A stretch of DNA of 64,000 nt from Hydrolagus affinis (Eukaryota): the NCBI GenBank assembly GCA_012026655.1, contig JAAILG010000769.1, forward strand, positions 1 to 64,000, read 5' to 3'. A model generated the notes under the pieces. It was given only the letters and a program-made list of their open reading frames with translations, was not told the origin of the DNA and made no database searches. The position numbers and the translations under genes were made by a program. Of this stretch, positions 5,165 to 61,327 are shown one piece after another. Every line of letters starts with the position of its first letter. The stretch's first letter is position 1.

Positions 5165-5248
5165 TGGGCCACAGTTGCATTCATTCTTCAGCGAGCTTTA
5201 CCTCATAGTTAAACCCACCGACAGCAATGAATGTTGATTGTGACCTTT
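5165..5248 (-). ncRNA. MIR181B: pre-miR-181b hairpin; mature 5p AACAUUCAUUGCUGUCGGUGGGU at 5213-5235, 3p arm about 5175-5195
   Basis: The reverse complement of 5213-5235 is identical to vertebrate miR-181b-5p. Conserved lower stem GGUCACAAUC...CAACUGUGGCC; the arms base-pair. Confidence 0.97.
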
Positions 5249-5354: not shown

Positions 5355-5443
5355 GGCTGGCTACAAGGTACAATCAACGGTCGATGGTTTCTCCAATAGC
5401 ATCAAACTCACCGACAGCGTTGAATGTTCCCTGAAACCACCAG
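5355..5443 (-). ncRNA. MIR181A: pre-miR-181a hairpin; 5p AACAUUCAACGCUGUCGGUGAGU at 5406-5428, 3p ACCAUCGACCGUUGAUUGUACC at 5367-5388
   Basis: Both arms are identical to miR-181a-5p and miR-181a-3p (miR-213). Basal UG at -14/-13 and CNNC motifs 15-21 nt past the 3p end. Lies 193 nt upstream of miR-181b, the canonical a-then-b order. Confidence 0.98.
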
Positions 5444-7844: not shown

Positions 7845-7989
7845 TAAACAAAACACAAAATACTACAGATGTTGGGAATCTGAAACCTGTTCTGACGAAG
7901 GGTTGTAGACCCGAAACATTGACTCTTTTTCCTTTCTCCATGGATGCTGCTTGACCTGCTGAGTTTCCCCAGCAACTTTTGTGTTTGTT
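7845..7989 (+). mobile_element. Short hammerhead-core retroelement, copy 1 (single arm)
   Basis: Homologous to 35761-35980 and 61102-61327. Flanking direct repeat ccaaa(g/a)gttcata (7830-7842 / 7990-8002). CTGACGA-A-GGGTT-gta-GACCC-GAAAC at 7892-7917. Confidence 0.75.
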
Positions 7990-8793
7990 CCAAAAGTTCA
8001 TATTTGGCAGTAGCTATGCTGCCAAGGTAACGATTTATCGATGCCATTTCCCCTTATTTGTATAGGCACAGGTACAGTGTGTCAAAAACCTACTTTTTGA
8101 TCCATTTGAACACTTCAAATGATCTCTCAGACCACAAATGGAGTTTAAAAGAACAGTTTCTGATATGCTCACTGAAGATAAAAAGCAGTAAAGGAAAGTA
8201 TCCTCTGACTTAAGGCTTTCACCCACAGGGAGAATTAATTTTTTTATATATATATACTTGGGAAACAGTCTTTTCTAATTATCTTGTGCTGAAATTGGTT
8301 GTCTTCCTCACCATGGGCAAATGGTGAAACTGAAATTAAAAAATGTATATTTTCATGAACTCAAGAACTGATTCATCCTGTTCTGACATAGCAAATCCTA
8401 CGAGCTGCTCTCATGTTGGAATTAGAGGGTGGTGAGATTGGAGGGATGCCTGAATGTAAGTGCCAGTGGCAAAATGCCTAAGTAGACCGGAGCTCCAGGG
8501 CGGCCAAGGTCTCCTCAAGCTACGAGGAATTTAAAAAGTGTCTGCTACAGCTTGAGTAAAATTAGACCTTTTAAACAAGGATCTGGATATTGTTGCTTTT
8601 ATTGGGTACAATTGCTGTACTTCGAAAACTCGCAGCTGATCGCACATTGTGTTATTCTCAAGTGCAGTGACTTTCGTTACATAGGGAAACACAACAGCGA
8701 ACACGTTCCACAACCAATTAGTCTGTTTTGGTGAATTTGGATGAGTTAAACACATGCACGTGTGCAAAGACTGAGGCTAAAAGAAACACTTAC

Positions 8794-11944: not shown

Positions 11945-12370
11945 GGGTTCCTGTTGCTCAGTGGTTAGAGCACTTGTCTCACAAGCAAGAGACCTGGATT
12001 TGATTCGCAGCAGGGCAAAACCTTTGGCAAGTTTTATTACTCCACATGCCTGATAATAATCCTTCAAGAAAAAAAATAATAAATTGGTCATGTTTCAATC
12101 CCCGATTGTTTGTGGGACACTGCTGAGCACAATTGCCTGCCGCGTTTTGCCAACAAATATGCAGTCAATTCACTTTACAGTGTGTTCTGCAAAGCGCTTT
12201 GGGATGTCTAGAAGATATTTAAAGTGCTATATCAAGTGCAAGGATTATTATTATTATTAAACACAGTCACTATGCAGTTAAACACTGAAGTATTTTGAGG
12301 CATCTTCCTGAGGTAAAAGATGCTATAACAAATGCAAGTATTTAAAAATTATTATTATTTTAATTATTAA
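11945..12370 (+). mobile_element. tRNA-derived SINE with tandemly duplicated 3' tail
   Basis: tRNA-like head (tgctcagtggttagagcac A box; gatttgattc degenerate B box), body tgtgggacactgctg, tail aagcgctttgggatgtc..gcaaggattattattatt, and a second tail at 12260-12370. Confidence 0.85.
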
Positions 12371-35730: not shown

Positions 35731-35760
35731 AATGGGCGAGCTCAAAGTAAAGACATATGT

Positions 35761-35980
35761 AACCAAAAAACCCCAAATACTGCAGATGCTGGAAATCTGA
35801 AACAAAAACAGAAATCGCTGGCAACACTCAGCAGGTCAGGCAGCACGTATGGAGAAAGGAAAAGTGAGTCAACATTTCGGGTCTGATGAAGGGTCGTGGA
35901 CCCGAAACATTGACTCACTTTCCTTTCTCCATACGTGCTGCCTAACCTGCTGTATGTTCCCAGCAATTTCTGTTTTTGTT
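35761..35980 (+). mobile_element. Fold-back hammerhead-core retroelement, copy 2
   Basis: About 83-bp inverted arms (35801-35883 / 35899-35980). Perfect direct repeat taaagacatatgt (35748-35760 / 35980-35992). CTGATGA-A-GGGTC-gtg-GACCC-GAAAC at 35883-35908. Confidence 0.8.
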
Positions 35981-37017
35981 AAAGACATATGTGTTTGCTT
36001 GAAGTTAAACAGATTCTCATTTCCCCCCTCCCCTGTCTCCCCCACTTTTTACTTGCATTTGATCACATGGGCTGAGTAAAAAAGGTATGTGTGAAAATAG
36101 TGGTTATACCGGATTTCTACTGATTCATCGCCTTCATACTGTCCACTTTAGCAATTTCTCGCAATGTTGCAATAGGCCCTAAATTGTTGTTTGGGAGAGT
36201 TTTTGTATGGTTTGTGGGGGTGGGGGGGGGAGGGAGAGAGAGAGAGACAGGCAGGTATCTGTGGTGTCAATACATTTACCTACATTAAGAATGCTTATTC
36301 ATAATAGGGTTTGTTAAGGCTTGAAGTCCTTATTTGTACCTTAACATACCAGTGTAGCATATCCCCATTAGTGTAGATAATTAAAAATAAGCTTGCTCCA
36401 TTTCATTTGTTTATAAAGGAGGCACTGATGTTGAAACAATTTATGCTTTAACTCAGAAGTTGGCTGTAAAATAACTGGTCTGATAGTTCCTTTTACAAAG
36501 GTTCACAGGCACAGTCAGTTACTGGGGGTGGGTGGAGGGGGCAAAAAAAATTCTACATTGTATATTTTGCTTCTATGAGTGCTCTGCTGTATACTGCACC
36601 ATTCATATTTGACGCTGTGAAAGGCCCGGACCCATAAACACCACAGGAGAAGTAAGTTCAGAAAGACTTTCTCAAGAATGAAAGAATAATGAGAATGCAC
36701 TGTGCCCCAGTGCATTACAGTATCCACTTATTCTCTGACTACTGATTGGGTTCCATTGAGAAAGGGGGCCAGTAGAGCTCTGTGTTGCATGAACAATTTA
36801 GTGGCAATTCCCACATAGAATTAGTGATGTTTTCAAGTTCTGTGAGCTCTCACATTGGGGCCCTGTGACACTGCCAAGAATGGCCATGGAATAACTGCTT
36901 TCTCTCCATTGTATCTCTTGCCTCAGTTATGCTACACTACAAGGATTCAGTATCAGGGATACTTTCATGAGTAGAACGACTGAACTACCTAAGTCATGCT
37001 GCCTGCCAGTCTCATGT

Positions 37018-37078
37018 TACAACAACAACAACTTGTATAGCGCCTTTCACGTCAGGAAGACGTCCCAAGGCGCTGGGG
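37018..37078 (-). mobile_element. L2 tail fragment
   Basis: (aac)n..tatagcgcctttcacgtcaggaagacgtcccaaggcgctg is the reverse complement of the tail at 37566-37632. Confidence 0.8.
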
Positions 37079-37224
37079 CAACGTGCGCACAGCACACAAC
37101 TTTCTTCTTGGTCACTAATTTTCAGTGAAATGCTATTTGAAACCTAAAGGGGGTTCACTCTGTCTGGCATCTTAAACTCCTGCCCTTTCAAATCTCTAGT
37201 CATTTTTGAGGTGGGGATACTTTA

Positions 37225-37634
37225 AGATCAAGATCGAATTCAAGATCCTCGTCCTCACTTTCAAGGCCATTCACGGCCGTGCCCCCGCCTATCTCTCTGA
37301 CCTATTGTCTCCCTATCAGCCTGCCCACACCCTCCGTTCAGCAGACATAGGTCTGCTCCGCGTCCACCGCCCTAATCGCCCAACCATCGGCGGCTGGGCT
37401 TTCAGCGTCTCTGCTCCCACACTGTGGAACTCCATCCTGCAGCCCCTCCGCCTTGCTTCCTCCCTTTCCTCCTTCAAGACCAGTCTCAAGACCTTCCTCC
37501 TTGACCATGCCTTTGGCTCCCCCATCCCCCCCCCCACCCCCTGCTCGGGTCCTGACCTGATTGTTCAGCGCTTTGGGTCGTCCTCCCGACGTGAAAGGCG
37601 CTATATAAGTGCAATTTTGTTGTTCTTGTTGTTC
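37225..37634 (+). mobile_element. Young 5'-truncated L2-clade LINE (ORF2 C-terminus, 3'UTR, (TTG)n tail)
   Basis: Open frame IEFKILVLTFKAIHGRAPAYLSDLL..TLRS..AFSVSAPTLWNS..SSFKTSLKTFL is the characteristic L2 ORF2 C-terminus; CpGs largely retained. Confidence 0.9.
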
Positions 37635-43089: not shown

Positions 43090-46000
43090 GTTTGAACTAT
43101 TTGCTTTTGTCTCTTTATTCCCTCTGAGTCATGTCTTGCCAAGTGTTCTGTGTTGCTAAGACGGTAGGGGAGGGAAGGAGGGAGGGAGAGACAGACAGAC
43201 AGACAGGGAGGGAGAGAGTCGTTTTTTCAGCTTCTCCCAAACCCTGATATTTCTGTCAACTCAGGAAGATTCAAAAGGGGCTAAGGAAAGGGGGGATATA
43301 CGCGTACATTGCCACTTATGAATCATAACTCCCAGACTCTCCGAGCGCTGTTTAGATTATAAGAGGACTTAAATGGTTTACTGGTCCAGGGAAGTTATCT
43401 TTTGTGTAATCAATTAGGGCAGTGGATGTGTGTAAAAAAAATATCTGGAAAGTTCTCTTGAGAAACCTGTAAGAAAGAACCAGCAACACAACTGCAGAAC
43501 AGTCATAAAGCAACAAAGAAATTAAGTTTTAAATCCAGCGCCTTGAGTGTGAAACGAATACAGCTCCTGCCCTATACAGTACAATGTAAATCGTCTGATC
43601 GTTTGGCCTCAAATCTGTGCTCGAGGCTTGCTCTTTAAATCGCTGATTTTTTTTTTTTTTTGGGGGGGGGTGTTCTTTGTCTACTACTTTCTTCCTGCTC
43701 CTCTCTCTTCGTGTTCCAACGCCAGCAATATCTTGGCAGAAGCCAATCCCCCTGAGTTGCTGCCGCGGCTTCACCGCCTCCTTTGGGCGGCATCTCCATT
43801 CGTTGAGTTACCAACAAACCGTTAATTAATCAATGTGACGGATGCGGGGAGCGAAGGGTTCTTTTGATAGCTCGCCACTGAAACTGGGCAACCCAAGAAG
43901 ATCACAATACAGTCAGTGGGAAAAGGAACGGCTTATTGCAATAATTAGTAACCGATGCGACTGACAAGTCCAACCACCCAAACTTCCAAATGACAGTACA
44001 TACATTCTCTGAATGCTGATACTCTCAGATGTACGAACTCTCCCCACTTTCTCCCCCCCCCCCCCCTCTCTCTCTCACACACACACACTCTCCCTCACAC
44101 ACACTCCCTCCACCCATTAACTCTCCAATCCCCGGCTGCCATTGACTCGAACCCTCCTCTCATTCGAAAGTGGGAATAAATGAGGCTGGGCTCACATCAC
44201 TGTCTCAAATGAGAAATGTGAATGGTTGAGAAACCTGATTTGAGTAGACACGAGAAGTCTGCGAGAAAGCAGACGTGAGAGTAAAGCTCTTTGCTGCTCT
44301 GCAGTGTCTGCACTAACGTACACCATAACCTCGCAGAATTATAAAGGATTCATCCATTAGGTTCAGAATCTTTCAGTTTGCACTGAGATGGCGCTTTCCC
44401 GTGGCAGGAATATCGTGATGCTGTGAATTAATTCCATGAAACACACTATCTGAATAGACCAATGAACTCAGTTGCAAGTGCTCTTTAATCTTGTGATAAG
44501 AAGGGAGCGGGAGATTATTTTATATGGAGGGGTGGGGGTGATGGACGACTTGCCCTTTGAAGACCATATGATTTTTGCACAAAATATTCTGGAATTTCAT
44601 GCATGTGAATTCTCTCTGCAACATTCAAGTGATGAGCAGGAAACCAGTTTTTCAGATGTTGTTTGATGTTGTTGGAGATTCTGCTTGTATCATAGCTATA
44701 TATATATATATAAAAAAGAGCCAGGCAAGATCGAATTACACCGTAATGCTCTTGTTTGCGAAAGCCACATTTCAAAATATTGGATATGAAATTCTATGAT
44801 TAAAAGATTGCATTTGCATCATTTTTTGGGGGGGGGGAATGAACCATTGATATTATGCACTTATGAAATCCTGATGTTTCTAAGGAAACATATTCTCCCT
44901 CGGGTGCAATGACTGTGCTACTCGAATCATGTTTTTCCAAGATCCTGTTCCCTCCCCCTCCTCCCTCCCTCCCTTCCTCCTCATGGTTGCAGATGGGTGG
45001 CTAATTTTCATAATTAGCGTAGGTTTTCTATACAGATGAATTATGTCGGTGTTTAAATCAAACTATTTCATGAATCCTAAGTGTTCGTGACTGTTCCTGT
45101 CCAGACTAGTTAAGTCAACCCCCCCTCTCCTCAGCTACATTTGACTAAACCGAGTGTTACTCGTGCTGTCAGATTCTCTGGCATGGAGGCACGCACTTCA
45201 ATATTTGGATGTCTTAACTATCTGGTTAATCTATTTAACCAGACGGTGGGTGACTTTGAATGGCATTAAACCCTGGCTACCTGGGCCGATAGAGATCAGC
45301 ACCGTCTACAATCCATGGCGATAGTCTCGTAGTGTAGCCAGCTCTCCGGTGAAGGATTCTAAGGCTGTCCCTACATGTCTCTGGATGAGTTTTTTTTCCA
45401 TTCATTCCACCGAATGCTTTGGTCTGAAACATTCACGCTGAATGAGATTTGCTCCCTTAAGCCGCCCACCGCTTGCAGAATAAGAGAGGAAACTGCAGGG
45501 TATTTATGGCACGAGTTAATCGTAATAAATGTGCCTTTTTGTACATTGTACCTGGTTCAAATCTCTGTGATGTTTGTAGGCACGGCTGTTGCCACCTGTT
45601 AGGGTGATTGTCAGATCCAACGATTGTACAGCCCTACTTCAGCAATTGTAGTAATATTTTTTACAAAAAAGAGATTAGATTAAGCGGTCACACACACGCG
45701 TTTGCATACTTGATAAGTCTTAGTTTTTAAAGCCAAATCATCTCTTTTAATATTTTTGAACCAAAGTAAAGTAATAAAAAAAAGGATGTCTTCAGTTAAG
45801 GGACCGATTGTCTGCAGTACATTAAGTTTGGAGATGACACAGCTCCACTTCATAGACTGATTGATCGTTTCATTGTATAAAATAATACACTGGAAATGTC
45901 TTCAGCTGCTCATTGCCTGGGCCAGAATGGACTACTGGACGATTCTCCCTTTGTGCCGTTTTGCTCAAGTACAAAAAGTCACATTTATTACAATTAACTT

Positions 46001-49000
46001 GTACCATAAATAGCCTGCAGTTCCAGCAAGTTGTGTTTTTTTTAGTAAAAATCATTGTTGCAGTAAAATCATTGACTGCCATACATTTGGAGAAATGGGT
46101 GACATTATATGACGTGTAACTTTGTGTGCTATCCATCATTCCTGAACATTAGAGATAGAGAGAGAGCGAGAGCTATGATGTTTGGGCAACACAATAAAAA
46201 GGGTCTGGATATTTCATGAAAACCCACAGGAAGGAAATTTCCCTCAGAAAGACTGCACTTGCACACGCAGGAATGTATGTTTTTCTACGCTGTACTTGCA
46301 TTTTGGGTGAACCAAACACACACACACAGAGCCTCACAAATTGCCCCGAGAGTTTCCTCCTTTGCCAAATCTAAATTGAAATTAAGCTTGGCAGTTCAGC
46401 AGCAAATTTGCCTACAGGTTTGCCTGCAAAATACACAAGACACTGCACTACAGAGTCTATCATTGTGAAGCGTGTTGAGTCATCCTGTTGGTATGAAAGC
46501 ACAAATAATACCAAATGTCGGGATGAAACTTTATACTTGACCCAAATGGGATCCTCCCGGCGTTTTCCAGCACTGGGCTTCCCTGACAAAACACAACAAA
46601 TCTTCTCGTGTATTCTTTGCCAAAGTGACACTAACCTTGATGATTAAGGGAAGAGACTGAAGGTCAAGTCCATCAATGTCTGGTCTTTATTTTGCTACTC
46701 GTGAACTTGGTGGCCATTGTCTCCATTCCAGTCACATCTAAAAAGACTTTAGGTTTCCATTTCTTCTCATTCCTGTGTTTGTTTGTTTTTGTAACTTGTT
46801 ACCAGTCCGAGAGAGAGAGAGATGGAGCGAGTTCTCTCCGTGCCGACTGCCACTGCATCATTGAGTCAAGTTGCAAAAGTGTATCCTCAAAAATAAGATT
46901 CATTCTGGCCAAGCCAACCTATCTATCTAAATGGGGTGGGGGGGGTGGGGGGTCATTCACTGTCCCATTCAGTCCAGGCGACACAAGTCATAACCTAACT
47001 TCAATGTAAATACCTCAGCACAATAAACCTTTTATATAGTAAAGTACAGAAGCTTTGATGAAGGGGGTAATCGCGTTGATCTGCAAATAGCAATGAGGGC
47101 CACCCTTAGTAATGCTACAGAAGAAAATGTACTTTGTTCCATTATGAGCCCTTAGCATGCCAAGAAATGCGACTTCGTGAACAGTAAATTCGAAACAAAC
47201 CTTATCGGCTATTCTTTCTGATTGATAGCACACGAAGCCTCTCGGGGGGAGGGGGTGGGATTTCAAGCCGAAGAACTGTGGACTGAATCACAGAAGTGAC
47301 CGAGGGGATGTTCCAATGCAGGGAAAAGAAAACATTGGTTGTGATGTATTGCACCTCTGAAGCTCAAGGGAAAATATTTTATTTCTTAGGACCACAGGCT
47401 GTAACTTGCAGTTCTCTGTGGCCTCACACTTACTCCATTGTTAACCGCCTGCAAGGGAGTCAGATGCATTGCTTTGTATCCATAATTATTTATTTTTTTG
47501 GTCGGGGAGGGGGGTGGGGGTGGTGGGGGGTGATATTTTTCAGCTGCACTTTGAAAGAGTTTCATTATGTGCGCCTTCCAGATACCCAAAGCCTTTGTTT
47601 AATTCCAGCAGCATTTTCTTGTGCATTTTTAATTCGTCCCATCTCGACCCTGACAAAGCGAGTGTATTTAGCAAAGCAGTAAGTATCACTTCAACCTGGG
47701 ATCAAATGACTTCAGTCGATTTAATTCATTAACTAATCTAAGGTTAGCAAAGAGGGAAAAATTGTATGTCCTCGAGAGTGCGTTTAGCTAGTGGTATTCA
47801 AGATTTTAGTCCAAAGACTTAATAGATTTATACTACAGAAAAGGATCAGATATTAGGTGTTTGCAACCCTAAATTTAATCCCTATGATGTCGGATTATTT
47901 GAGAAATGAAGTAACGTGGAAACCTGCCTCAAAACCATCCCAATAATGCCGGGGTTTTTTGCACTCTTTCATTTCAGCTATAGTGCAACAATACAACCTC
48001 ACCAGCAAGGTGAACCAACCCCCACTAAAGTAGTCAAACTTGCCCAGTCCCTTTGCTGATGTTATGAGCCAGTTTCCATTGTACCAGGCTTGGGCAAAAC
48101 ATAGCCAATTGTGAGTATTTCAAGCTTTGCTAGTTGGAAGGAAAAACTGCGAACGTGTACCTCAAGGGCAGCAATGTATAAAGATCATCACGTCATCACA
48201 TTTTGCATGGCTGACTCCACTGTGACCTCTCCAAATTTGAACTTAGTCAATTCTATGAAAACAGGAACAGGAGGAGGCTGTTTGGATTTGGTCTCACCTT
48301 GGATTTATTAGTATGTGTATGTATGTATGTGTGTATATATATATATATATACTTGCAGTACACTTGGTTAGTTATTAAAGATGTTACATTTTTATGTATC
48401 CACAATTTAAGAGGAAGAAAGTGCACTATAGGTTTTTAATTTCTCACATTTTCAGTTGGTCAGAGGTCAAACATTGAAACAATTTTTGCACTGCTCCATG
48501 TCGTTCTGCCTCATGAGAAAGCTGGCTGGGAAAGAAAGAAGGTATTATACTGTGGCGCAAAGTATATTTTTATTAACCTTTGGAAGCCTGCGGGAAAAAA
48601 AATGTCGTTACAATATTTAGTTTCTTCGTAGAACACCGTGATAGAAATGCATTCTGTGATTCCATGCATTCTTCTGCTTCACAATATTCCATATTCAAAG
48701 CGTATGGTTAGCATTGCAGATGTTGTGTGATAGAAAACATGTGGCTACTCTGAAAGCTGCAAAGCACATTCTGTCTTCGCTGGATTAAAAGTGTAGATAT
48801 ATTTTCAAATAACCACAAATGTTGTGTTAAATGAAGCATAAGTGCATATATGACAGTTCTTACTGAACTTGAGAAAATGCACGCTTTTCACCAAAATAAA
48901 ATTGATATGAGAAATTATGTTTCCATTCAGGCATTATTGGCTATCTATTTTATTCTTTATCTGTTAAAAAAAATTGTTCCAAACAGGAACAGAAACAGTT

Positions 49001-58654: not shown

Positions 58655-59515
58655 TTTTAGTATACAATTTTTTTCTCTTCCTCCCAGAAGATGACATAAA
58701 CTACAGTCCAGTAGCATGGTCGCTCATAGCTGCCTGGTGCCTTGCCTAAGGGGTTACTCTTAATTTCTAAGTCTAGATGGTGTATGTTGACTAGCTATTT
58801 GATTGGAGGGATTACAGTCAATGCTGACCCCGTCTTTGGGTAATTTCCAGGTGTTCTTTCCAGGACGAGTTACTGGATAACAATTCGGGAGCAAGAACTC
58901 CATTTATTGTTTCTATATCCTCAGCAAAATCCTGTGGAGTCCTGTAGCATATTGGTTAGAGCATCTCGCTTCGCATGAGATGGGTTAGATTTCAGGGCAG
59001 AGCAAAACCTTAGGCAAGTTTCCTTACCATCACATGGCTCTGTTTTCCTTGCAGCAAGTAGGAATCCAATTATTCGATTGGCAGATGGCTTTTCCGGGGA
59101 TAATAATCCTTTTGAATAATAATAATAATAATTTGATCACTCAATCCATGACTGCTTGTGGGACACTGCTGTGAGTAATTGGTTGCACTGTTTTGCTCGC
59201 AAAATATAGTCTCTATAACATTACATTATATCCTCTGAAGCGCTTTGAAATGTCTTAGTGGCATGATAACCTGCTGAATCAAATGTAAAGAATATTATTA
59301 CAAAGACCAGCTATCGAGCTTCTGACTTTTCCAGGTCTCCCTCACTCACGTGTTGCAATTTCCCTTTGAGCTTCATTGCCCTGATTTTTGTCATTTTTGT
59401 CTAGTTACCAATTTTTTTTAGTATACAATTTTTTTCTCTTCCTCCCAGAAGATGACATAAACTGCAGTCCAGTAGCATGGTCGCTCATAGCTGCCTGGTG
59501 CCTTGCCTTGGGGGT
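58655..59515 (+). repeat. 100-bp direct repeat pair (58655-58754 and 59416-59515)
   Basis: ttttagtatacaa(t7)ctcttcctcccagaagatgacataaact(a/g)cagtccagtagcatggtcgctcatagctgcctggtgccttgcct..ggggt; three mismatches, offset 761. Confidence 0.95.
58936..59300 (+). mobile_element. Near full-length tRNA-derived SINE inserted in a minus-strand LF-SINE-like relic (about 58735-59340)
   Basis: Head ggagtcctgtagcatattggttagagc..gcagagcaaaaccttaggcaagttt (compare 11945), body and L2-type tail. Flanks carry ctttccagg..gttactggataacaattcgggagcaagaac and gaccagctatcgagc..ttccaggtct. Confidence 0.8.
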
Positions 59516-61101
59516 AGAGAGAGTGCGAGAGAGAATCTATTCTCCCATGAAAAGCTCTTCATGGTAGTCCAATAATGAGGATCTGAAAGATTGGATTTAT
59601 TTTGTTTTGTAGTGCTGAATTTAACAAATAAGTCCCCCAATTCCTGAAATAATGCAGTTATTCTCCATGCATCATTATCCCATACTTATTCAAATTAATG
59701 GAACTCTACATCTTTATGTAAAAATCCAACTACAGTTGCAGAGTTTCTAGAAATATTCAGAAACTCCACTTTGTGTTCTAACCATAATCCACAATTTCGG
59801 ATCTGAAATGACAAGCTAAATTCCATTCCATCATAACACTTCAACTGGAGAATTCTTCTATTCTGTCTCTTCATTCTAAGTGAGCAATAATATCCTTGTT
59901 GGGTTCATCGGTGGAGAGATTTTCTCTGATTTCCTTAAGAATTCCTCTCCAAGTCAACCCAATGTGACTAATTGTGTGGATAGCTCCACTTCTTCCTCTC
60001 TTTGTTGGACTATTTAACCAGATTTTAGGAGCCGGTGTTGTTACGTTATTACAGTCCTTCCAGAGCAACTTGCACCCGTGCCATTGAAAATGGAGATGCT
60101 TAGATTTGTTGAAAATATTTTAAAACCAAATGGCCATTCACTGCATTGATGTTTGCGGGACATTGCTGTGCACAAATCAGTTATTTTACTAATCCTGTAT
60201 TGAATTTAAATAGCACTGGTTATCAAACAGAATACATTGAATGTACAGTACATCATGCATTCAAGGTAAAGTAATCTACATCATTCTCGCACACTATGCC
60301 GTGTTTCAATTCACATTCAGTGCATTTGCTTTGGGTCTGATTTGCATATAGCCAGATGAGGCATTGTATCTATACACATACCCAACCATCAATGTTCAAT
60401 GTTTTTTTATTCTCTGATCTTTTCATTTTTCATATTTTCATACATTTTTCATAAAATTGCTTTTAATTTAAGCGTCCAACCTTTAAATTCAAAAAGGGAA
60501 ATTTGGAACCTACTTTGGAACAGTCAAAATGCTAAATTGAAGAATCTCTACGCAAAAAGCCAAAGGTTTCGAATTTGTCTTAAAAAGAGTCAACTCTTGT
60601 GATAGACCTAGTCGTGCAATTAATACACACAGGTGCTTGCTGAAAACGGTTTGTAAGTAGCCAGCGCAGGAAGTTTTCTTCATGTTGAAGCACAGGAAGA
60701 CGCTGAATGATCCAGGTGACTGGTGACACCCGGTGCCGCTGTTCTATTGCGAAATACATTGGTCTTGTTCTGGTGGATCCGTGTTAATGTCAAATCCCAT
60801 TTGTTTCACAATGCTCTTTCCATCATATGACTACTAAAAAGATTCAAACTGCTCAAAGCATCATACTGCTTGGGTAACGTTAAAGCACACTGCAGCTCAG
60901 TTTTAGTTTCGCAGAAGGTGTTCTTTTAACAAATTGGTGCAGAAGGTTGTTTACGGAGAAAACAATAGATCTAATTGAAGGCTGTGTGACCACAGGAACT
61001 CCCTGGAATATGTTATATCCTCATGCCAACAGGAACAGAGCCCAAATTTGAAGAGAGCATCAAGAACAGGTACAGACTAGAACCAACATACTTATAGAAG
61101 G

Positions 61102-61327
61102 AACAAAAACAAAAGTTGCTGGGGAAACTCAGCAGGTCAGGCAGCATCCATGGAGAAAGGAAAAGGAGTCAACGTTTCGGATCTATAACCCTTTGTCAGA
61201 ATACACACTGACAACCCGAAATGTTGACTCCTTTTCCTTTCTCCATGGATGCTGCCTGACCTGCTGAGTTTCCCCAGCAACTTCTGTTTTTGTTTCAGAT
61301 TCCCAACATCTGTAGTATTTTGTGTTT
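61102..61327 (-). mobile_element. Fold-back hammerhead-core retroelement, copy 3
   Basis: About 80-bp inverted arms. Direct repeat catacttata(g/c)aagg (61087-61101 / 61328-61342). Minus-strand CTGACAA-A-GGGTT-ata-GATCC-GAAACGTT-GAC at about 61168-61199. Confidence 0.8.

Follow-up and report, generated by a model that had tools for sequence, protein, structure and literature searches.

The fold-back repeat at 35748..35992 of the window (by which we mean the whole 64,000-nucleotide stretch of DNA analyzed) derives from a Penelope-like element (PLE) that bears an endonuclease: it is the element's terminal repeat (pLTR), left by a one-off insertion of that repeat, and its parent is present in the same genome. 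A PLE origin of this copy is as good as certain, and the element is an ordinary member of a known PLE kind. It measures about 220 bp in all and the coding part is absent. Its features, and those of two further family copies in the window, are listed below.

35748..35760, forward strand: left TSD of 13 bp, the same bases as 35980-35992
35761..35800, reverse strand: PLE "tail" on the inverted copy, matching the tail of the long copy L154
35801..35883, reverse strand: inverted 5′-truncated pLTR arm, ending within hammerhead stem II
35882..35980, forward strand: direct pLTR copy without tail, with 81% identity to the pLTR ends of the RT-EN-bearing copies L153 and L154
35883..35915, forward strand: minimal type I hammerhead motif (core 35883-35889, extra A 35890)
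35891-35895/35899-35903, forward strand: hammerhead stem II (GAAA 35904-35907; would-be cut after 35911)
35980..35992, forward strand: right TSD, the same 13 bases as the left TSD
7848..7991 (about), forward strand: second family copy, an inverted tail only and then a direct pLTR without tail; GTA-loop subfamily
61100..61327 (about), reverse strand: third family copy, an inverted arm with tail, a 13-nt filler and a direct pLTR

A previous sequence-only reading of this DNA had described inverted arms of about 83 bp, a perfect 13-bp TSD and an asymmetric 40-bp leader outside the palindrome, and all three are present: the palindrome arms at 35801-35883 (83 nt) and 35899-35980 (82 nt) are 91% alike, the two TSD copies are the same 13 bases (the first T being also the terminal base of the element), and the 40-nt leader at 35761-35800 lies outside the palindrome on one side only. 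The leader equals the 30-40 nt PLE tail already described. The arrangement by which PLEs are recognized, an inverted 5′-truncated copy with a tail of 30-40 nt at one end and a TSD, was found, and an inverted pLTR with one tail and a TSD is the published PLE layout (PMC3846280, PMC8557442). The direct pLTR starts 1 nt inside the front edge of the hammerhead and overlaps the inverted arm by 2 nt. The whole element folds into one hairpin (−133.8 kcal/mol; z = −18 against 200 shuffles), which matched an Rfam miRNA model at E = 6e-7, under the cut-off of that model. The copies at 7.9 kb (TSD of ∼13 bp with one mismatch) and 61 kb (15-bp TSD with one mismatch; G8 changed to A in the direct pLTR) differ from the window element in their fold-back, the former having an inverted tail alone and the latter the 13-nt filler.

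Elsewhere in the window, a pair of mir-181 hairpins (5165-5246 and 5358-5439, reverse strand) and a tRNA-like sequence (11947-12017), which is probably a SINE head, scored above their Rfam cut-offs. The mir-181 pair marks the host as a vertebrate. Two MITE-like elements (37031-37610 and 45491-46022) carry terminal inverted repeats of 45-54 bp about 0.5 kb apart, and a 100-bp direct duplication (58655-58754 and 59416-59515) is 97% identical over a spacing of 761 bp. The window yielded no host gene, the 40 longest of its 111 stop-free frames having no Pfam match.

The high copy number expected from three copies in one window was borne out: an exact 28-base core pattern had at least 647 matches in the 1.11-Gb assembly and a looser degenerate pattern at least 3,457, both counts being lower bounds, and reversed-pattern controls for both searches returned 0 matches. 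By rough inference from this one window, three copies per 64 kb extrapolates to tens of thousands genome-wide. The family may already be catalogued in Repbase or Dfam; an account of it in cartilaginous fish was not found in the open-access main texts searched.

Coding parent and hammerhead motif

The sequence-only reading had proposed a Penelope-like origin and had suggested looking for a GIY-YIG and RT Penelope reading frame beside the same terminus, and such a parent was found. Some copies chosen by the core pattern extend upstream, one of them (L073) as far as a GIY-YIG frame, and a GIY-YIG fragment is followed downstream by the pLTR arm, on one and the same strand, in 28 of 30 loci, including that of the query itself. 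RT motifs were found in one of those 30 loci; among 20 loci hand-chosen from 41 RT matches and fetched, 12 had the order RT, EN, arm. Parent frames matched the Pfam GIY-YIG model at 25.3 bits, above its cut-off, and four of eight matched RVT_1 below the cut-off (E = 6e-4 to 8e-3). All parent coding copies seen are broken. The parent protein has 97 homologs of 773-1358 aa, mostly with RVT_1 and some also with GIY-YIG (best identity 44-46%), none of which carries the Penelope name, and a PDB sequence search with an RT fragment gave no match. A CX4CxxC linker stands upstream of GIY-YIG in the translated frames of L151, L154, L155, L157 and L158. Such a linker (CX2-5CxxC) before the endonuclease is a mark of Neptune and Nematis PLEs (PMC8557442), so that by this motif the parent would be of the Neptune/Nematis type.

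In the parent, the tail lies 3′ of the arm and continues into the 5′ end of the main body, which it adjoins in 7 of 30 loci by BLAST and in about 10 more by eye. Since the arm follows EN and the tail runs into the main-body 5′ end, the hammerhead, arm and tail together make up the pLTR and the leader of the parent RNA. The repeat is present both after the ORF and before the main body, as tandem pLTRs would have it. Copy L152, a 3.3-kb insertion between TSDs, repeats the anatomy of the window copy: inverted tail, arm, UTR and EN are followed by direct RT, EN, UTR and an arm without tail.

The 30 best genome loci for Pfam GIY-YIG were considered as the parent and rejected, because they belong to another repeat family and none of the 30 carries this repeat; weaker matches in the same genome list overlap the true parent. 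That other family (L031-L060) is a separate, fairly young GIY-YIG family without this pLTR, 85-97% identical between copies and often sitting within tandem repeats. In L332, L334, L335 and others, a branch-point-like motif, a pyrimidine run and AG, and then ATG, occur about 25 nt into the main body. This AG could be the acceptor of an intron crossing the pLTR-body boundary, with RT starts inside it, as in Chlamys-3; no donor site for the putative intron was identified. Five short composite insertions (L334, L337, L353, L355 and L357) carry the tail, then 140-260 nt from the 5′ end of the main body, then a second promoter-hammerhead-arm unit, which suggests template jumps that build tandem pLTRs.

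At the apex of the palindrome, the minimal hammerhead core that had been reported there was read at 35883-35914 as CUGAUGA-A-GGGUC-GUG-GACCC-GAAAC-AUU-GAC. Rfam returned no hammerhead match anywhere in the 64-kb window at E ≤ 10, and the hammerhead reading therefore depends on comparison by hand with the minimal motif as published. That motif has one additional nucleotide separating positions 9 and 10.1, a G10.1-C11.1 pair, a helix I of 4 bp, and a palindromic 15.2-16.2 without a helix III loop (PMC4209133). Family copies fit it, as the sequence-only reading had held in naming a minimal type I hammerhead whose stem III is palindromic: they have the CUGANGA/GAAA core, the extra base, G10.1-C11.1, a short helix I and the palindromic stem III. 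The motif is intact in 59 of 111 core-selected copies, and 97% of the cells in a stem alignment of 31 copies are paired. The window copy does not fit, as G16.2 is changed to A and the 5′ strand of helix I is lost; moreover, the pairing probability of stem II in the predicted fold of the fold-back is 0.0. With these two losses and stem II buried in the fold-back, the ribozyme of the window copy is predicted to be dead, in line with the suggestion that these copies may be inactive.

Stem II had also been described as varying while staying paired. The variants are real, but they are one-sided C-to-T changes, a product of CpG decay, with no pair changed on both sides. No two-sided change occurred at any stem pair in the 31 aligned copies, the same as in shuffles, and of 100 listed copies with a mutation at the second base of the stem, about 98, counted by eye, had kept the partner unchanged. 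The covariation test covers copies of one family in this genome, and since these decay neutrally it has little power. For an intact natural copy, neither the monomer nor the cofold prediction of ViennaRNA returned a hammerhead dimer, and the two are uninformative about it. Dimer cleavage of small hammerheads was reportedly described in 2017. The ribozyme is dispensable in vitro for a lizard PLE (PMC11167929), and on our analysis it would not be needed for the insertion route proposed below.

Arms, tails and junctions across the family

Copies were sampled by an intact core pattern from the larger contigs, and the first sample comprised 111 distinct insertions (120 loci minus 9 duplicates). The classifier mislabeled a few single-arm partial tails (L062, L068, L087), leaving two-arm counts unchanged. 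A TSD was found in 43 of the 111 insertions and in none of 111 shuffled-flank controls, and was undetected in 68. Tabulation of TSD lengths, as had been recommended, gave a mode of 13-14 bp and a range of 9-21 bp, with 70% AT against a background of 60%.

An inverted arm was present in 46 of the 111 core-selected insertions and none was detected in 65. Junctions of the 46 two-armed copies ranged from −407 to +113 relative to the first T of the core. The exact junction of the window copy had 13 matches in the genome, 3 in one subfamily and 10 in another; the inverted arm carries the tail in 9 of them and the direct arm in 3, and one copy is truncated. Since it occurs in two subfamilies, and with the tail now on one side and now on the other, this junction arose repeatedly.

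These junctions bear on whether the fold-back is itself a non-autonomous mobile unit (MITE-, SINE- or retrozyme-like), transcribed and moved whole by PLE protein. Thousands of copies exist (at least 3,457 core-pattern matches), PLE proteins are able to mobilize other sequence in trans (PMC3846280), and the 30 best whole-element matches share their outer ends. However, those 30 were picked by likeness to the query, most core-selected insertions have no detected inverted arm, the junctions are widely spread, and copies sharing the window junction span both subfamilies with the tail on either side. Animal retrozymes, furthermore, are head-to-tail with canonical type I hammerheads (PMC7229834), whereas the copies here are head-to-head with the minimal motif. 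We consider a mobile unit of this sort very improbable, and the non-autonomous PLE/retrozyme-like family put forward in the sequence-only reading is not supported, since the fold-back is not copied as a unit: junctions differ, and that of the window copy recurs independently. A MITE was rejected on the tail outside the palindrome, the variable junctions, TSDs of 9-21 bp and a parent that is an RT element; an animal non-LTR retrozyme was rejected on the head-to-head or single copies, the minimal motif and the lack of an Rfam hammerhead match.

The tail follows a simple rule. Exactly one arm was tailed in 43 of 45 scorable two-armed copies overall, and both arms were tailed in none. In the first sample, the tail was on the inverted arm in 17 copies, on the direct arm in 13, on neither in 1 and on both in 0 (30/31 one-tailed; p = 3e-8 against independence); a second sample had one tail in 13 of 14 scorable copies. 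The tail-less arm stops ∼35 nt short of the tailed arm. Arms within one element are 92.6% alike, compared with 87.8% between elements (n = 18), and subfamily markers were discordant between arms in 1 of 13 scorable elements (L221); this similarity within elements could also stem from gene conversion.

Both the one-tail rule and the likeness of arms within an element would follow from snap-back self-priming, as proposed for PLEs (PMC3846280), in which a single cDNA would fold back at a palindrome to serve as its own template, after which the endonuclease resolves the hairpin and leaves the tail on one side. Many junctions do lie at local palindromes, stem II of the window copy included. A self-copy, however, holds only first-strand content, so that the arm with the tail would need to be made first and to extend further 5′. 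In many copies, that of the window included, it is instead the more truncated of the two, inverted tailed arms ending at +13 to +113 next to tail-less arms that are complete. Among two-armed copies the shorter arm may be either one, which simple snap-back cannot give, and we regard this explanation as decidedly unlikely.

The 5′ boundary and a route of insertion

Direct arms start at a boundary on the front edge of the hammerhead in 81 of the 111 core-selected insertions. Inverted arms that reach this boundary stop at −3 to +4 in 16 of 20 cases in the first sample and in all 11 in the second, and the boundary is seen in both subfamilies. It lies at CCAGTTC, ∼30 nt below CTTAAAA; by the promoter consensus these are initiator-like and TATA-like, respectively.

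Genome-wide, the base before AG was G in 294 copies and A or T in 340, a ∼2.6-fold excess of G (p = 3e-31) over an expectation of 1:3 for G versus A+T, which matches the 20-25% share of G at positions −5 to −8. G was found at this base in 0 of 28 aligned long copies, and among 40 G copies inspected a point change within a long copy, or a direct join of arms, could account for about 5, leaving ∼35 unexplained in that way. The excess is not visible by eye in the first 100 listed core matches (3 G versus ∼7 A or T). C, the templated base, is still commonest at −3 (38/81), so that the ends scatter from about −4 to 0 instead of being set at A. By eye, CTGAG stands in about 10 of the 40 G copies, and slippage and re-copying of the first bases could make these without a cap. 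The boundary copies L078, L082, L090 and L226 have CCA directly before the core, without G. In L1, an extra G marks a copied cap (PMC11702581).

RNA of a second, related species (one sample, three runs) contained the family at 80-95% identity on both strands, and 71-79% of the reads continued into other sequence; these reads are read-through of genomic copies. Piles of read starts at two places were considered as transcription starts, but were absent with another reference copy, and were rejected as artifacts because each follows a mismatch private to the copy used as reference. No transcription start was seen in this RNA.

PMC8557442 and PMC11167929 treat as unsettled the way in which PLEs come by inverted pLTRs and one-sided tails. 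In vitro, the protein of a lizard PLE nicks and extends both strands, and RT starts at two internal sites that bound the tail (PMC11167929), a result that comes from a Poseidon element, of a different clade from the family described here. We propose that both nicked target strands would prime reverse transcription on parent RNA, and that the two arm ends would correspond to two such internal start sites. Priming at both nicks, one per RT site, would yield a head-to-head palindrome that has one tail and keeps the TSD intact. Most arms would be short through run-off at the 5′ end of an RNA starting at the hammerhead front edge; this parent RNA would begin at or near the A of CCAGTTC, and the excess G before that A would be a copied cap. 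The two cDNA ends would then be joined head to head by microhomology or a short templated filler. Taken as a full mechanism, this twin-primed insertion from a capped parent RNA is probable, its weakest step being the capped start. That most short Penelope insertions in this lineage are strong-stop-like run-off copies, rather than truncated at random, of an RNA made from a TATA-plus-initiator promoter in the pLTR and capped at the first stem of the hammerhead, primed twice ∼35 nt apart, is a more tentative proposition, which we put just short of an even chance. None of the open-access main texts searched ties twin priming or a cap G to PLEs.

The sharp 5′ boundary might instead be a 3′ splice site, or a stall of RT at the ribozyme, with the rest of the proposed route left standing. 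A branch-point-like motif, a pyrimidine run and CAG do stand directly before the core, and an intron ends at helix I in Penelope of D. virilis (PMC4209133). Against splicing, the boundary copies have no upstream exon in common, the TSD ends ≤10 nt from the core in 12 single-arm copies, and no spliced joint appeared in the related species' RNA among the rows listed. Exon ends favor A or C at −3, whereas in these copies G outnumbers A there (294 versus roughly 190). A search for captured host exons upstream of the core gave no convincing distant TSDs. Overall, we rate a splice site or stall as rather unlikely.

It is also highly improbable that the template RNA owes its ends to cleavage by the ribozyme. 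The intact motif in 59 of 111 core-selected copies would suit cleavage, as would the second sample, where 4 inverted arms out of 21 have ends falling at +28 to +35, close to the cut site at +31. However, none of the 46 inverted arms in the first sample ends at +26 to +36, and the G by which the second sample had been chosen is one that microhomology joining in stem I at +32 yields; the in vitro dispensability of the ribozyme (PMC11167929) argues in the same direction. Direct arms, having been selected for an intact core, cannot test this alternative.

Comparison with known systems

For models of PLE insertion, the family provides a numeric record: one tail in 43 of 45 copies and never two, a sharp 5′ boundary and a ∼2.6-fold excess of G. 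If the run-off reading is true, thousands of copies would record PLE integration base by base, with a fossil cap G. In genome annotation, such hairpins are best masked as PLE ends rather than as MITEs, retrozymes or miRNA precursors.

In layout the family resembles Pen2/Pen2a of Adineta vaga, which have head-to-head inverted pLTRs, a tail of 30-40 nt at one end and a TSD (PMC3846280); these elements and the general PLE scheme also share TATA- and initiator-like pLTR motifs and, in the parent, RT followed by GIY-YIG (PMC8557442). They differ in that the window element is 220 bp without the coding part, the TSD mode is 13-14 bp here instead of 8-10 bp, and most arms share one boundary. With Neptune and Nematis PLEs (PMC8557442) the parent has in common a C-terminal GIY-YIG with two core cysteines, the CX4CxxC linker and a DKG motif. 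Poseidon PAc of Anolis carolinensis resembles the family in its hammerhead and tail at the pLTR-ORF junction, its two ends bounding the tail and its AT-rich targets (PMC11167929). It belongs to another clade, Poseidon being without the linker, and in the family here the first ATG is seen after the tail, not at stem II. In the portions of PMC11167929 consulted, the inverted arms are not derived from two starts and capped 5′ run-off is not discussed.

The hammerheads of metazoan PLEs (PMC4209133) share the extra nucleotide between 9 and 10.1, G10.1-C11.1, the 4-bp helix I and the palindromic 15.2-16.2, whereas helix II here is 5 bp with a 3-nt loop and the window copy has lost the palindrome and the 5′ strand of helix I. 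Twin priming in L1 (PMC11702581) likewise primes both target ends, keeps the TSD, joins by microhomology and leaves an extra G at complete 5′ ends; its cDNAs cover adjacent parts of the RNA, whereas here a near-full overlap makes the palindrome. Animal non-LTR retrozymes (PMC7229834) are similar in being short, non-coding repeats with a type I hammerhead and a TSD. They differ in being arrayed head to tail, as tandems of 170-400 nt that have circular RNAs and hammerheads of the canonical kind, whereas the repeat described here is the pLTR of a coding element.
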